Origin: an uncultured Acidobacteriota bacterium
GTDB taxonomy: Bacteria > Acidobacteriota > Vicinamibacteria > Vicinamibacterales > UBA2999
Direction of reading: 5' to 3'
Assembly (NCBI GenBank): GCA_963723005.1
Contig: CAVRPA010000004.1
Coordinates: forward strand, 13,053-77,052
DNA: 64,000 nucleotides
Shown here: piece by piece, positions 11,642 to 23,196 of the stretch
How positions within the stretch are numbered: the stretch's first letter is position 1
How the letters are laid out: each line of letters begins with the position of its first letter
Notes under the pieces: generated by a model
The model's input: the letters and a program-made list of their open reading frames with translations, nothing else
Told to the model about the DNA's origin: nothing
The model's database searches: none
Made by a program: the position numbers and the translations under genes

Positions 11642-14600
11642 ATGTTGAGATCCGGGCGCACCCTTGTCACGCTGCTGCTCCTTGCGGCCCTGCCCGGGCC
11701 CTGGCAGCCGGCGGCTTTCGCGCAACAGGTCTGCGTGCGGACCCCTGGGTACTGGCAGACGCATCCTGCTGAATGGCGCGCCCCGGCCCTGGTGCTTGGC
11801 CGGGCCAACTACCCGTCCCACGTCTACGTGCAGGCGCAACTGCTGGACCTGCTGCGGCTGCAGGCTAAAGGCGACGCCAGCGTCATCCTGGCCACTCAGC
11901 TGATTGCGGCGAAACTGAACGTTGCGGGCGGCGCCAGTCCGCTTCCGGTGGCGCAGGCCGTGACGCGCGCCGATGCGCTGCTCGGCGCCTTTGTCTCAAC
12001 GCTGCCGTACCGTACCAAAACCAACACGCCCATCGGGGCCGACATGGTGACGACGGCCGACCTGCTTGCCGCGTATAACCGGGGAGAGCTGCCCGGTTCC
12101 TGCGGCGCCGGCAATACCCCCCCCATCGCTCAGGCCGGGCGCGACCAGTCCGTGGCGCTCGGCAGTCTTGTCACGCTCGATGGAAGCGGATCCACCGACG
12201 CCGACGGTCAGCAGCTGACCTTCGCGTGGTCGTTCTCGTCGCGGCCGTCTGGGAGCGCGGCGGCGCTGTCGTCACCAACGGCGGTGATGCCGACCTTTAC
12301 TGCCGATCGACCCGGCACCTATTCGCTGCGGCTCGTCGTCAACGATGGCCAGGCGAGCAGCACGCCCGACGTTGTCGAGATCTCCACGCTCAACTCGAGC
12401 CCGATCGCTGACGCCGGGCCGGATCAGTCGGTTCCCGTCGGCACGTCGGTGCAGGTCAATGGTGTCGCGTCGAGCGATCCGGACGGGGATTCGCTCACCT
12501 ACGCCTGGTCGCTGCTGTCCGGTCCTGCGGGCACGCAGGCAACTCTCACGAATCCCGCCGCCGTGGCGCCTTCATTCGTAGTCGATGCGCCAGGCAACTT
12601 CATCCTCCAGTTGATCGTCGCAGACCCGGGCGGATTGCAGAGCGCGCCAGACGTGGTCACCGTGTCCACCGCGAACTCGCCCCCGGTGGCGCATGCAGGC
12701 GCCGACACAACGGCGGTGCTCGGCGCCGCAGTAACGCTCGACGGCTCCACGTCGACAGACGTCGACGGCAACCCGCTGACCTTCGCCTGGACGTTCACGT
12801 CGCTACCGGACGGCAGCGTCGCGACCTTGACCAATCCATCTTCCGCCACGCCGACCTTCACCATTGACGTGTCCGGTGTCTACGTGGTGCAGCTGATCGT
12901 GAACGACGGCACGGTTGCCAGCGCACCGGACACCGTGGTGGTGGCGACGACGAACTCCCGGCCCGTCGCTCGCGCGGGCCCGGACCGGGACGCCATCGTC
13001 GGCGTCGGTGTCACGCTCGACGGCAGCGGCTCAACCGATGTTGACGGCGCAGCCGTTGACGTATCTCTGGGCGCTGACGGCTCGGCCCGTCGGCAGCACC
13101 GCAGCGTTGTCCGACAACACCGCCGTGATGCCGGCGCTCGTGCCCGATCTTCCGGGCACTTATGTCGCGCAGCTGATCGTGAACGACGGCACGCTCGACA
13201 GCGATGCCGACACCGTCACCATCACCACGGCGGCGCCTTCGAACCGGGCGCCGGTTGCGAATGCCGGGCCTGATGCGACGGTCCCGCTCGCCGCCATCGT
13301 TCAACTCGACGGCGGAGGCTCGAGCGATCCGGATGGCGACGGGCTGTCGTACCGCTGGTCGCTCGTGACCCGGCCCGCGGGCAGCGCCGCGCAGCTCACC
13401 GCGACGGACATCGCGGCGCCGACATTTGTCGCGGATCGCGCCGGCACCTACGTCGCTCAGCTGATCGTCCGGGACGGGCAGGTAGACAGCGCGCCCGACA
13501 CCGTGACCATCTCCACCGGGAACTCGATGCCGGTGGCGCTCGCTGGTGTGGACCAAACGGTGGCGCGGCAATCGACCGTACAGCTCGATGGCGGCGGATC
13601 GAGCGACGCCGACGGCGGCGTCCTGCTCTACTCATGGTCGCTGCTGTCCCGGCCGGCCGGCAGCACGGCCACGCTGTCGAACCTGACGATCGTGAATCCG
13701 ACGTTCGTGGCCGATCTCGACGGTGTCTACGTGGCGCAGCTGACCGTCTCGGACGGCTCGCTGGTGAGTGCGCCCGATACCGTGGCCATTACCGCCGGCC
13801 CCGGAGCGGATCTCAGCGATCACGATGCCGGTGGTTCCCTCCACGCAGTCACCGGGAAGCCAGAGTCGGCTGGTACGTCTGATGTGGAGAACCTCGGCCC
13901 GTTCGCCGCGGAGCAGGTGACCGTTCATGCCCCCGTGCCGGCGGGGTACACGCTGATCGGCTTCGACACGAGCGGCAATGGGATATGGGACCCGGCGACC
14001 GGCATCTGGACGATCGGAACGGTGGCCGCATGCGACCTTGAAGCGACTGGTGATTGAGCGCGACAGTCAACACTCACCGGGCCTTACGACCTGAGCGCGA
14101 GAATCACCAACAGCAGCGCGCCTGATCCCGACCTCGCCAACAACACGGCCAGCGCCATCGTCACCCCGAATCGCAATGCGGACCTCCGCGCGTCGTTCCA
14201 CAACTTCAGCCCCGGAACCCGGAGCCCGGGTGAGGTCATCGGGATGCTGTTCGACGTGTACAACGATGGACCCTCTATCGCGACCGATATCGTGGCATCG
14301 TTCGCCATTCCGGCGGGCTTCACCATCGTCTCGGCCAGCGTCAGCCACGGGACCTACGACGGCGCCACCGGGGTGTGGACGATCGGCGACTCGCCGCGTG
14401 GCCGACCGGCAAGGCTGACCCTCAACCTGCGGGTCAATGCCACCGGTTCGATCGATCTGCGGGGGGCCATCACCGGCAGCAGCCAACCCGATCCCAATCT
14501 GGCCAACAACGTCATCGTTCCGGAGCGAATCAACCGGCCGCCGGTCGCGAATGCGGGCGCCGACCAGGCAGTCAGCACCAACGGCGCCGTCCTGCTCGAT

Positions 14601-22000: not shown

Positions 22001-23196
22001 AGTGGAGTGCCGACGACCGGCTCGTACGGACCAGCGGAGCCGGTGGCGGGGCGGAGTTCACCTACGACGCAGACGGCAACCGTGTCGCCCGGCGCGCCGG
22101 TGCCGATGTCACCAGTTTCCTGGTGGACGCCAACAACCCGACGGGCTTATCGCAGGTCGTCGAGGAGCGCGACGGGCAGGGCGGGCTGCAAGCGCAGTAC
22201 ACGTATGGAACCGGCATTGTCGCCGCCACGCGTGCGTCGGGCAACGCGTTCTATCAGCCGGACGCGCTCGGCAGCACGCGGCTCTTGACGAATGGCGCCG
22301 GCGCGATCACGGATACCTACCAATACGATGCGTTCGGCGCTCTGTCAGGAGTGACCGGTTCCACGCCGAATCCGTACCTGTTCGCCGGCGAGCAGCTCGA
22401 GCCGGCGCTCGGGCTCTACAACCTGCGCGCTCGCAACTACGATCCGGCCGCCGGCCGGTTCCTGGGCCGCGATCCGTTCCCGGGACAGGTTGCGGATCCG
22501 CGGTCGCAGCATCCGTACCTCTACGCGCATGCCGACCCCGTCAATGTGACCGACCCGACCGGGTTGTTCTCGTTGATGGAGATCAGCGCAGGGCTGGGCA
22601 TCCAGGATGTGCTCAAGGCTGTGGACATGGGACGCACCGCAGTCCAGTACTGCGCGCTGACTGGCAAGGCGGAGGTCCTCCAGGAGGCGCTCTTCTGGGG
22701 ACAGTTCGCAGCGGCCGGACCCATTCTGGCTGCGGAACTGTTTGACAACCGGGGAGCGAACGCCTCCATCGACGTCACGTTCGATGCGAAACGTTACATC
22801 AACGTTTTCAATAGCTCCGAGAAGGTCGTCGAGGCAAAGGTCGGCATCAACTTCGCCCGCAACGGCGACCGCAAGCTTGGCTTCGAGTTCAAGTGGCCTG
22901 GCGACGTGAGCGGGGGCCTCGAGTTCGACTTGAACGACGTGGAGAGGTCCAGCTTCAAGTTCGGCAACGGCCCCGCGTCGTTCGGGGTCTCGCGGAATGA
23001 CGTCACCATTGGCCTGAAGAAGTCGTTTGACGTCTTCAAGGTAGAGCGCTGCGCCATCGAGATGGTGAAAGCCAGTGTGGAAGTCGGGATCAAGACCGGC
23101 ATCGTCGCTAAGACCAGCATCTCGGCGGATATTGTCGTGGAGGGGGTGGCCGGGGCCCTGAAGTTCACCTACCCCGTGATCCCCGAGCGTCAGTGA
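19009..23196 (+). CDS. RHS/YD-repeat protein core with C-terminal variable domain (intact 1395-aa ORF; probably the C-terminal third of the giant gene)
   Basis: Dozens of YD-type repeats (TYTYDANSNRL, FAYDERNRL, YDAVGNA, YEYDAIGNR). RHS core end motif YLYAHADPVNVTDPTGL near 22520-22562, followed by a ~210-aa tail with no recognised motif. The frame is open and homologous upstream of the nominal TTG start. Confidence 0.9.
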   Translation: MLNELLPCVGGSLETRSHLTEVRLSDREFYKFALRVENGNIGITGACEGVARFQFLDGTLPGATLQILDGTRVIYLRAGPDQLLDMNDFLDGVERIYEPRRVRLTTIDGRRIDLTLASGIERIEDNNGNALSITDAGIVHSSGRSVAFTRDARGRLSRITDPLGHTVEYTYTADDLTAVTDQSGAVTTFAYDSLHNLVEMHDPLGNRAVLAEYDAGGRLVAITDARGARTEFTHDITGREEIITDGLGRATRVVYDDQGYVASKETSVTIDGTAVVARTQYQHDARGHETVVVDPDGIRAEGTYDQVNLLEEVVDPAGLALRTVRTYDARGEVLTQTDPAGSVFSFAYDSRGNLTGLSAAAGGVTNIAYDAAGQPVSAADALGNRRRLSYDSSGRVLREEQLDPGGVVLTRTDYTYDANSNRLTRTELRTLDGVQRLLTTRFAYDERNRLIASTDPLGGVTRIEYNDVGLQRAQVDALGRRTAFTYDEVGALTRTDFADGTFETRTYDTVGNLASVRDRAGRTTTFGYDELKRRIMVTRPDGTSTRTVYTAAGRVRAVIDGRGNRTDHDHDGAGRRTRTTQPAVIDAATGLTRRPEIGYEYDDAGRITATTDSNGHRTTFAYDAMGRLTGRAYADGTSLQAGYDVVGRLIEQRDESGRLTRLGYDALGRLTRLTDALGGVTTYSYDEAGRPSTQRDALGRITGFERDELGRLTVRRLPGGGVETYSYDAVGNARAHTDFNGTTVLFAYDAMDRLVRRTYPGGVENTFTYTPTGQRATATDPRGTTTYAYSATDQLTQVTHPGGETIQYAYDADGNLGRFETGSATVNYAHDALNRIVSLAAVTNGAPLGTVQFGYDAAGNVLEQVRPNGVTTRMSYDLRNRVNAITHMAGATTLASFTYQLSPTGRRTQVNEAGGGVVRYGYDALDRLISEVRDGSTAVGYEYDAIGNRTRMNRNGATTNYTYDVDDRLLSTGAASYAYDANGNLLSRTIGGGTTSYEWSADDRLVRTSGAGGGAEFTYDADGNRVARRAGADVTSFLVDANNPTGLSQVVEERDGQGGLQAQYTYGTGIVAATRASGNAFYQPDALGSTRLLTNGAGAITDTYQYDAFGALSGVTGSTPNPYLFAGEQLEPALGLYNLRARNYDPAAGRFLGRDPFPGQVADPRSQHPYLYAHADPVNVTDPTGLFSLMEISAGLGIQDVLKAVDMGRTAVQYCALTGKAEVLQEALFWGQFAAAGPILAAELFDNRGANASIDVTFDAKRYINVFNSSEKVVEAKVGINFARNGDRKLGFEFKWPGDVSGGLEFDLNDVERSSFKFGNGPASFGVSRNDVTIGLKKSFDVFKVERCAIEMVKASVEVGIKTGIVAKTSISADIVVEGVAGALKFTYPVIPERQ

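Follow-up and report, generated by a model that had tools for sequence, protein, structure and literature searches.

Among the weapons that bacteria use on contact, RHS proteins form a major class, and several large architectures built around an RHS or YD-repeat shell are already described. WapA of Bacillus subtilis, from a monoderm host, is ~2,300 amino acids (aa) long; its signal peptide is followed by a cell-wall-binding-type module (CWB2 repeats, not PASTA) and then the YD repeats, and its Rhs core with DPxGL leads into a variable C-terminal payload (a tRNase), with the immunity gene wapI following. Teneurins, which are YD-shell proteins of animals with a bacterial origin, belong to the type II membrane proteins of eukaryotes and carry EGF repeats; in them, adhesion modules, a beta-propeller (of the NHL type), a YD shell, and a toxin-derived C-terminal domain (a Tox-GHH end) form a single polypeptide. 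PASTA domains are otherwise known as the peptidoglycan sensors of penicillin-binding proteins (PBPs) and kinases, and occur as canonical tandem extracytoplasmic units in PBP2x-type PBPs and in the kinases PknB, PrkC, and StkP. A large 2012 survey of polymorphic toxins describes TcB/TcC (TcdB/TcaC) proteins with a signal peptide, an FG-GAP propeller, an RHS cocoon with an aspartyl autoprotease, and an enclosed variable C-terminus (PMC3482391). TcB/TcC proteins need no immunity gene. The survey also lists Sec-dependent RHS toxins with beta-propellers, as well as TcdB/TcaC-type systems that pair an integrin-like propeller with RHS, and PASTA goes unmentioned in the bulk of its text (PMC3482391). 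Here we analyze a 64,000-nucleotide (nt) stretch of DNA from an uncultured Vicinamibacterales bacterium of the Acidobacteriota (contig CAVRPA010000004.1; hereafter, the window), in which a region of the plus strand (11642–23196) appears to encode a giant protein with two PASTA units in front of an RHS shell. Our best explanation as a whole, to which we give a probability of roughly 0.8, is that this is a single functional gene for a Sec-exported, adhesive, polymorphic-toxin-like RHS protein, and that it is broken only by assembly errors.

Like WapA, the giant protein runs from a signal peptide through a cell-wall-binding-type module and YD repeats to a DPxGL-bearing Rhs core and a C-terminal payload that varies. 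However, the module is PASTA, there are ~2,400 aa of extra adhesion modules plus a propeller, the payload is an orphan, no immunity gene follows, and the host is a diderm. The PASTA units also stand in a place unlike that in the PBPs and kinases, namely between an adhesin arm and an RHS shell in a diderm Acidobacteriota, with no transpeptidase or kinase attached. The protein shares with teneurins the single polypeptide with adhesion modules, propeller, YD shell, and a further C-terminal domain, but it comes from a bacterium, carries a Sec signal and PASTA units, has a propeller of the FG-GAP type, and is unrelated to them at the C-terminus. The likeness to TcB/TcC extends over all of the features listed above for that system, and it could be taken to mean that the gene encodes a Tc-like or anti-eukaryotic toxin, the counterpart of a fused TcB and TcC, for which no immunity gene would be required. 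Indeed, the survey gives a signal peptide combined with an integrin-like propeller and RHS as the layout of TcdB/TcaC-type systems (PMC3482391), and an immunity gene is lacking here too. Even so, neither SpvB nor TcdB_toxin_mid was found among the Pfam matches, no TcA-like partner was seen among the window open reading frames (ORFs) examined, and the propeller lies outside the shell, separated from it by five other modules (among them He_PIG, PASTA, MopE, and one further module). We therefore consider a Tc-like toxin highly improbable.

The window has a G+C content of 67.5%. Across its three plus-strand frames, the region contains seven long ORFs that overlap or abut (11642..13273, 12915..14057, 14244..17057, 16432..17487, 17054..18127, 18137..19267, and 19009..23196). 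All seven have arginine-rich nonsense at the start or the end, as is usual when a G+C-rich gene is read out of frame. Tracking of the G+C content of the third codon position and a stop-aware Viterbi path give a single coding track from the ATG at 11642 to the stop at 23196, with at least 17 frame changes made up of repeated +1 hops. Deleting 17 single bases turns this track into one open frame of 3,845 codons with zero internal stops, where ~83 would be expected by chance given the base composition. All 17 breaks are +1 single-base insertions, with no nonsense substitutions and no larger deletions, and the RHS and C-terminal part (18937–23196) is free of them. We examined the insertion sites for a common sequence motif or homopolymer context and found none. 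The pentamer GGCGC occurs at two of them (13052 and 15735), but with 373 copies in the window it is too common to explain these two breaks.

The most direct comparison comes from L005, an independent assembly of a ~95%-identical strain (ENA ERZ25039547, contig_96607) that covers positions 12575–25482 of the window. The alignment of the two over 12575–23232 contains 414 mismatches and 106 single-base gaps (95.2% identity). At 15 of the 17 sites (all except 13052 and 15735), the window has an extra base that is absent from L005; conversely, 65 extra bases are private to L005, and many of these fall within the RHS part, in which the window has no breaks. The TGA at 14055–14057, which an earlier note on this DNA had taken to mark a gene boundary in appearance only, lies in a short out-of-frame stretch created by three insertions private to the window (14038, 14056, and 14072). 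Because L005 reads through this TGA, in frame, as a normal DUF11 strand, the boundary at 14057 is an artefact. Correction of the frame lifts the score of the first DUF11 domain from 37 bits (a partial match) to 75.5 bits (nearly full length).

Other genes of the window are frameshifted alike, including those for an aldehyde dehydrogenase, a TonB-type receptor, a BamB-like protein, and a multi-haem cytochrome region (Table 1). Indel errors are numerous in the assembly as a whole but uneven across the window, with none in 8497–10965, 18937–23196, 25591–27882, or 45757–50301. Four related contigs with long-read-style names (L001, L002, L003, and L088) are also fragmented, each at different places. 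Since 15 of the 17 breaks are private to the window and unrelated genes are interrupted in the same way, we infer that the breaks are assembly errors strongly biased toward 1-base insertions, rather than gene boundaries or signs of decay. Programmed frameshifting was considered as well and rejected, given that breaks of the same kind occur in unrelated genes and that they are private to one assembly.

A genuine pseudogene, in which the frameshifts are real and the locus is decaying, would account for 17 breaks within 7.3 kb, and also for the two breaks (13052 and 15735) at which the window and L005, assembled independently from different samples, have the same bases. This is very unlikely, however, given the 15 private breaks, the different set of breaks in L005, the exclusive occurrence of 1-base insertions, the similar density of breaks in unrelated housekeeping genes, and the domains that score as intact after correction. 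The pattern of substitution points the same way. Differences between the window and L005 fall on codon positions 1, 2, and 3 of the corrected frame in the numbers 100, 66, and 237, respectively (209 synonymous and 155 non-synonymous codon differences). The third-position excess persists downstream of both shared breaks, so old, real frameshifts at these two sites are disfavoured. A homologue search for near-identical proteins that read through them was swamped by generic PKD proteins and found none; exact-pattern scans of JGI metagenomes around 13052 and 15735 gave no matches; and an exact look-up of the 543-aa first ORF returned no record.

Identity between L005 and the window is itself uneven. 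It is 90–92%, with 25–41 gaps per kb, over the He_PIG/PASTA/MopE region (17000–19000), and 98–99%, with 1–2 gaps per kb, over the distal RHS shell and payload (20000–23232). Either coverage was locally poor in one of the assemblies, or there was a recent exchange of the 3′ part between strains.

Relatives were searched for in a scan of one genome per species, and short-read assemblies hold several that are intact. L008, from an Acidobacteria metagenome-assembled genome (MAG) with a SPAdes-style contig name, has a single uninterrupted ORF of 3,878 aa with the same architecture, which aligns to the corrected window protein as one BLASTP segment (window aa 10–3641, 57% identity). In L009, a single ORF of 4,159 aa is colinear from the DUF11 region on (window aa 704–3656, 57.5% identity), whereas its N-terminal ~1,000 aa are different. 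L007, a Logan contig, has a complete, uninterrupted relative of 2,979 aa that shares the architecture and the C-terminal family, with a signal peptide, He_PIG units, a propeller, PASTA, two MopE motifs, and RHS repeats. Two ORFs from JGI Illumina data (P0002 and P0003) have no break between the propeller region and the C-terminus, and P0002 has none from the cadherin-like unit upstream onward. A tblastn search with P0002 (2,618 aa) is colinear over all of the frame segments, with zero residues lost at the junctions. The existence of intact full-length relatives indicates that the single-polypeptide architecture is both ancestral and current. The earlier note had likewise read the coding segments from 11642 to 23196 as one gene; the open frame obtained here, L005, and the intact relatives all bear this out, as L005 does for its treatment of the boundary at 14057.

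The other way to read the fragments is as an operon in which the adhesin, propeller, PASTA, and RHS-toxin parts would each be encoded by a separate gene. Gene callers do split the region so in the window and in L001, L002, L003, L005, and L088, and the overlap at 17054–17057 resembles translational coupling. However, the split points differ in every assembly and fall inside domains (DUF11, a jelly roll, propeller blades, and PASTA), and intact short-read ORFs span all of them without loss of residues. This makes an operon barely credible, and below we treat the region as one gene.

Table 1. Features of the giant gene, of its flanks, and of other frameshifted genes in the window
Feature	Positions	Strand	Evidence or remark
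Whole gene	11642..23196	+	one 3,845-codon ORF after removal of 17 single inserted bases
17 frame-breaking single-base insertions	between 13052 and 18936	+	at 13052, 13815, 13857, 13881, 14038, 14056, 14072, 15735, 15856, 15914, 16378, 17139, 17712, 17995, 18433, 18904, 18936; 15 absent from L005
Sec-type signal peptide, MLRSGRTLVTLLLLAALPGPWQPAAFA followed by QQ	11642..11722	+	read by eye: basic n-region, hydrophobic core, AxA site (AFA, then QQ)
Conserved ~130-aa N-terminal domain	11723..12121	+	no Pfam/NCBIfam match
Six tandem PKD units	12128..13796	+	PKD_4 133 bits, K319L-like_PKD 130 bits
DUF11 domain 1	13809..14135	+	75.5 bits, model positions 1-105 of 114 after correction; holds six insertions and the false stop 14055-14057
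DUF11 domain 2	14217..14513	+	69.5 bits
Seventh PKD unit, separate	14535..14813	+	PKD_4 30.8 bits
He_PIG unit 1, then cadherin-like/Big_9 unit	14826..15293	+	He_PIG 49.6, Cadherin_4 52.7, Big_9 66.9 bits
Two tandem discoidin-like jelly-roll units, weak assignment	15357..16187	+	F5_F8_type_C sub-threshold, unit 1 only
FG-GAP/VCBS beta-propeller, seven blades	16239..17503	+	FG-GAP_3 74.8 bits in 6 stretches, FG-GAP 43.6 bits
Cadherin-like/Big_9 remnant and He_PIG unit 2	17549..17930	+	He_PIG 46.8 bits, Big_9 21.1 bits
Two PASTA units	17946-18138 and 18157-18342 (17946..18342)	+	PASTA (PF03793) 43.8 and 46.1 bits
Cys-rich MopE-type motif DCND...NCNG	18373..18481	+	Cu-binding_MopE 29.6 bits, cutoff 27
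Highly conserved module before RHS shell	18509..18811	+	PTDIVGT...LRY...LENGLYR.RL..ED.NG; no Pfam match
RHS/YD-repeat shell, ~1,156 aa	18839..22308	+	RHS_repeat 444 bits, 19 stretches
RHS repeat-associated core	22309..22566	+	TIGR03696 66 bits, cutoff 32.5
Variable C-terminal domain, 209 aa, orphan family	22567..23193	+	no Pfam or PDB sequence match
Divergent ECF sigma factor (PF07638 type), possible regulator	10998..11552	-	Sigma70_ECF 204 bits
Ser/Thr kinase with TPR repeats, paired with the ECF sigma factor	8497..10965	-	Pkinase 150 bits plus TPR
TonB-type receptor	997-3542	-	split over 4 frames
Aldehyde dehydrogenase	6892-8234	-	three frames: Pfam model positions 33-183, 183-304, 307-461
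BamB-like PQQ_2 protein	24282-25476	+	split over 2 frames
Multi-haem cytochrome region	29772-33124	-	several frames

Profile searches recover most of the module order given in the earlier note: seven PKD units, two DUF11 domains, He_PIG and cadherin-like units, the propeller, two PASTA units, the Cys motif, YD repeats, the DPxGL core end, and a variable C-terminus. The note had omitted the cadherin-like remnant and second He_PIG unit that follow the propeller and precede the PASTA units. The PKD, DUF11, He_PIG, and cadherin-like Ig modules all score above gathering cutoffs, and the N-terminal domain, which is also present in L002 and L008, is conserved at 48–54% identity. Eight DxDxDG-type (Ca-binding-type) motifs, ~45–60 aa apart, fit a propeller of seven blades with one N-terminal closing motif.

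The two F5/8-C discoidin domains that had been proposed stand only in part. Unit 1 scores 18.8–24.1 bits against a Pfam cutoff of 28.2 for F5_F8_type_C, and unit 2 has no match, nor any among PDB sequences. The two units are nevertheless homologous to each other (30% identity, E 1e-9), and homologues carry PF00754. Judged from these alignments, a resemblance of both jelly rolls to F5/8-C is plausible, with membership of the family below threshold.

The PASTA and RHS assignments, in contrast, which had been marked in the earlier note for a profile check, both score above curated thresholds. The PASTA units are full-length (model positions 1–64 and 2–63 of 64; cutoff 23.2) and together reach 75.9 bits. 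The module that precedes the shell (18509..18811) has many invariant columns in the homologue alignment. The shell is also matched by YD_repeat_2x (TIGR01643; 332 bits in 13 stretches), and its start resembles DUF6531 at 17 bits, below cutoff. The translation of the core includes YDPAAGRFLGRDP (YDPAAGRF...DP) and DPVNVTDPTGL, with a putative self-cleavage site after 22566.

The combination of PASTA and RHS is not confined to this gene. Nine proteins in the first homologue search have both PF03793 and PF05593, among them JGI Illumina ORFs that run without a break from the propeller region on to the C-terminus, and the combination occurs in at least 12 related loci. The PASTA-MopE-shell junction also aligns in MAGs of Acidobacteriota/Vicinamibacterales and in a MAG labelled Rokubacteria, and at 41% identity in a Desulfobacterales MAG. 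Copy number varies among relatives, from one to three for PASTA and from zero to two for MopE. Because it recurs across related loci, PASTA is a conserved, modular trait of the family and not an accident of one gene, and the giant RHS+PASTA protein is a member of a family that is conserved in soil Acidobacteriota and has gone undescribed. The earlier note had considered PASTA in an RHS scaffold unusual and had suggested a survey for it elsewhere. No relevant paper emerged from a literature search that paired PASTA with Rhs or polymorphic toxins. The survey of relatives shows that the combination is no one-off.

Two orthologues have lipobox-like signal peptides (L008 at 3668–3790, with ...AAILVGC..., and the N-terminus of P0010, with ...AVLGC...), while the site in the window protein is of the AxA type. 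Judging from these motifs, some members of the family may be lipoproteins.

The C-terminal domain is far rarer than the scaffold that carries it. Among 1.84 billion (1.84e9) representative proteins, only 11 relatives were found, of which P0121 and P0122 are fragments of the L005 copy of the giant gene. Six of the 11 retain upstream RHS sequence (two of these being long RHS-bearing proteins), and another four are free-standing short ORFs of 95–187 aa with no RHS upstream. A profile of the family had no match among PDB sequences or in Pfam. The invariant residues are glycines, prolines, one phenylalanine, one alanine, and one cysteine, and none in the family alignment is of a catalytic type. AlphaFold gave a predicted local distance difference test (pLDDT) score of 35 from the single sequence. 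With nine sequences, the AlphaFold2 (AF2) model reached pLDDT 60 (70–80 in the beta part) and consists of helices followed by ~10 amphipathic strands in a beta meander. In a Foldseek search of the PDB, the model had no significant match (best E 0.034, TM <0.3); the weak matches are mostly transmembrane beta-barrels, which we take as no evidence. As an orphan domain without enzyme-like residues, predicted to form helices and an amphipathic beta meander, the payload might be membrane-active, and this is our best guess from the model, weakly held. The third-position G+C content of the domain is 0.84, that is, native-like, so it is not obviously a recent import.

A teneurin-like protein for adhesion or signalling, in which the YD shell and C-terminus serve cell-cell or cell-matrix interaction, would fit the ~2,400 aa of adhesion-type modules, the lack of catalytic-looking invariant residues in the C-terminal family, the match of homologues to the TEN_YD-shell model, and the absence of a downstream immunity gene in six loci (see below). 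In close homologues, however, the C-terminus is swapped for unrelated sequence directly after DPxGL, which is a hallmark of polymorphic toxins, and the Rhs core is intact, cleavage motifs included. More generally, homologues diverge directly after DPxG[L/E/A]: P0002–P0005 and P0009 each have a different tail after the core, and the L008 orthologue diverges once its alignment ends at window aa 3641. We regard a non-toxin of this kind as unlikely, though worth keeping in mind, and prefer a polymorphic-toxin-like protein.

The surroundings of the gene were examined for immunity, secretion, and regulatory functions. A convergent PfkB kinase gene ends 40 nt past the stop of the giant gene, and there is no co-directional (immunity-type) ORF behind the giant gene in the window, L005, L088, L001, L004, or L008. 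L005 and L088 have the same payload family as the window. In L007, a cut co-directional ORF lies 160 nt downstream. No genes of type VI or type VII secretion systems were seen among the window ORFs scanned, and profile searches found no PAAR, VgrG, prePAAR, or WXG/LXG N-terminus in the giant protein. The earlier note had reached the same view, that no such system is nearby and that export appears to be Sec-dependent, and the N-terminus, read by eye, does look like a Sec signal.

The pair formed by the extracytoplasmic function (ECF) sigma factor and the Ser/Thr kinase adjoins the giant gene in four loci, namely the window (8497–11552), L001 (2418–4945), L002 (6921–9931), and L008 (15851–18883), in differing orientation. 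It is absent within 10 kb of the giant gene in L003, L009, L010, and L012. Based on this synteny, the pair may regulate the giant gene as a dedicated module, although not family-wide. Elsewhere in the window (58314–60269, minus strand), a second Ser/Thr kinase is fused to PD40 (WD40-like) beta-propeller repeats, and a similar kinase lies near the L001 orthologue.

How such a protein might work can be sketched from what its parts do in other systems. On our best reading, the product is a giant RHS/YD-repeat protein that is exported by the Sec route and is of the polymorphic-toxin type. Its N-terminal arm (~2,400 aa of Ig-like modules, two lectin-like jelly rolls, and a seven-blade propeller) would bind surface polysaccharide or protein, as members of these domain families do elsewhere. 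Through its PASTA units, the protein may be anchored to peptidoglycan, be it that of the producer's own sacculus or that of a target's wall; by analogy with other PASTA proteins, such targeting is plausible. By analogy with the TcB-TcC and Rhs structures that have been solved, the 209-aa C-terminal domain is probably held inside the YD shell, and the aspartyl protease of the Rhs core probably cuts this payload free after DPTGL. Expression may be under the control of the sigma/kinase pair. These elements can also be combined into a more specific proposal: a class of immunity-less RHS toxins of diderm soil bacteria in which PASTA would home to the exposed peptidoglycan or lipid II of competing monoderms (Gram-positives), the payload released there would be a new, non-enzymatic, membrane-inserting domain of the beta-barrel type, the producer would need no immunity because its outer membrane shields its wall, and the sigma/kinase pair would switch on expression. 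We consider this conjunction decidedly unlikely to be right in full.

It is important to note that several points weigh against a functional toxin gene broken only by errors. The breaks at 13052 and 15735, being common to two assemblies, may be real mutations in the lineage, or else systematic base-calling errors. The status of the breaks as errors comes from the comparison of assemblies and not from read data. The divergence between the window and L005 is partly error itself, which blurs any estimate of selection. The missing immunity gene is atypical for antibacterial RHS toxins, and the model of the C-terminal domain, at pLDDT 60, is a low-confidence one for which no matching structure was found. 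Finally, a Sec signal alone leaves passage across the outer membrane unexplained, and no dedicated exporter was seen.

Some features of the window outside the locus also deserve mention. One open frame (45373–50301, plus strand) joins a PfkB-family sugar kinase (aa 3–298) to CarboxypepD_reg and an outer-membrane beta-barrel of 838 positions. A real fusion is unlikely here; more probably, two neighbours were merged by an indel that removed a stop. The surrounding region (40462–53471, plus strand) looks like a locus for pectin/uronate utilisation, with a ROK regulator, KduI, a PfkB kinase, a TonB-type barrel, a carboxylesterase, and a pectate-lyase-like protein. Another region of ~3.4 kb (60268–63669) has weak coding periodicity and slightly lower G+C content (~0.65); Rfam and tRNA scans of the whole window, this region included, were empty.

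For those who work with genomes of this kind, the window and the related long-read-style contigs carry ~1 indel per 0.5–1 kb in places, and gene calls in such contigs should not be taken as real boundaries or pseudogenes. For the biology of RHS proteins, the C-terminal domain represents a new, very rare payload family. How Sec-exported RHS proteins reach and recognise their targets is poorly understood, and the family described here joins a long adhesin arm, a propeller, and PASTA to a toxin cocoon. Binding of peptidoglycan by its PASTA units, if it occurs, would give polymorphic toxins a new principle of targeting or anchoring, and it would extend PASTA biology beyond the PBPs and kinases of Gram-positive bacteria.

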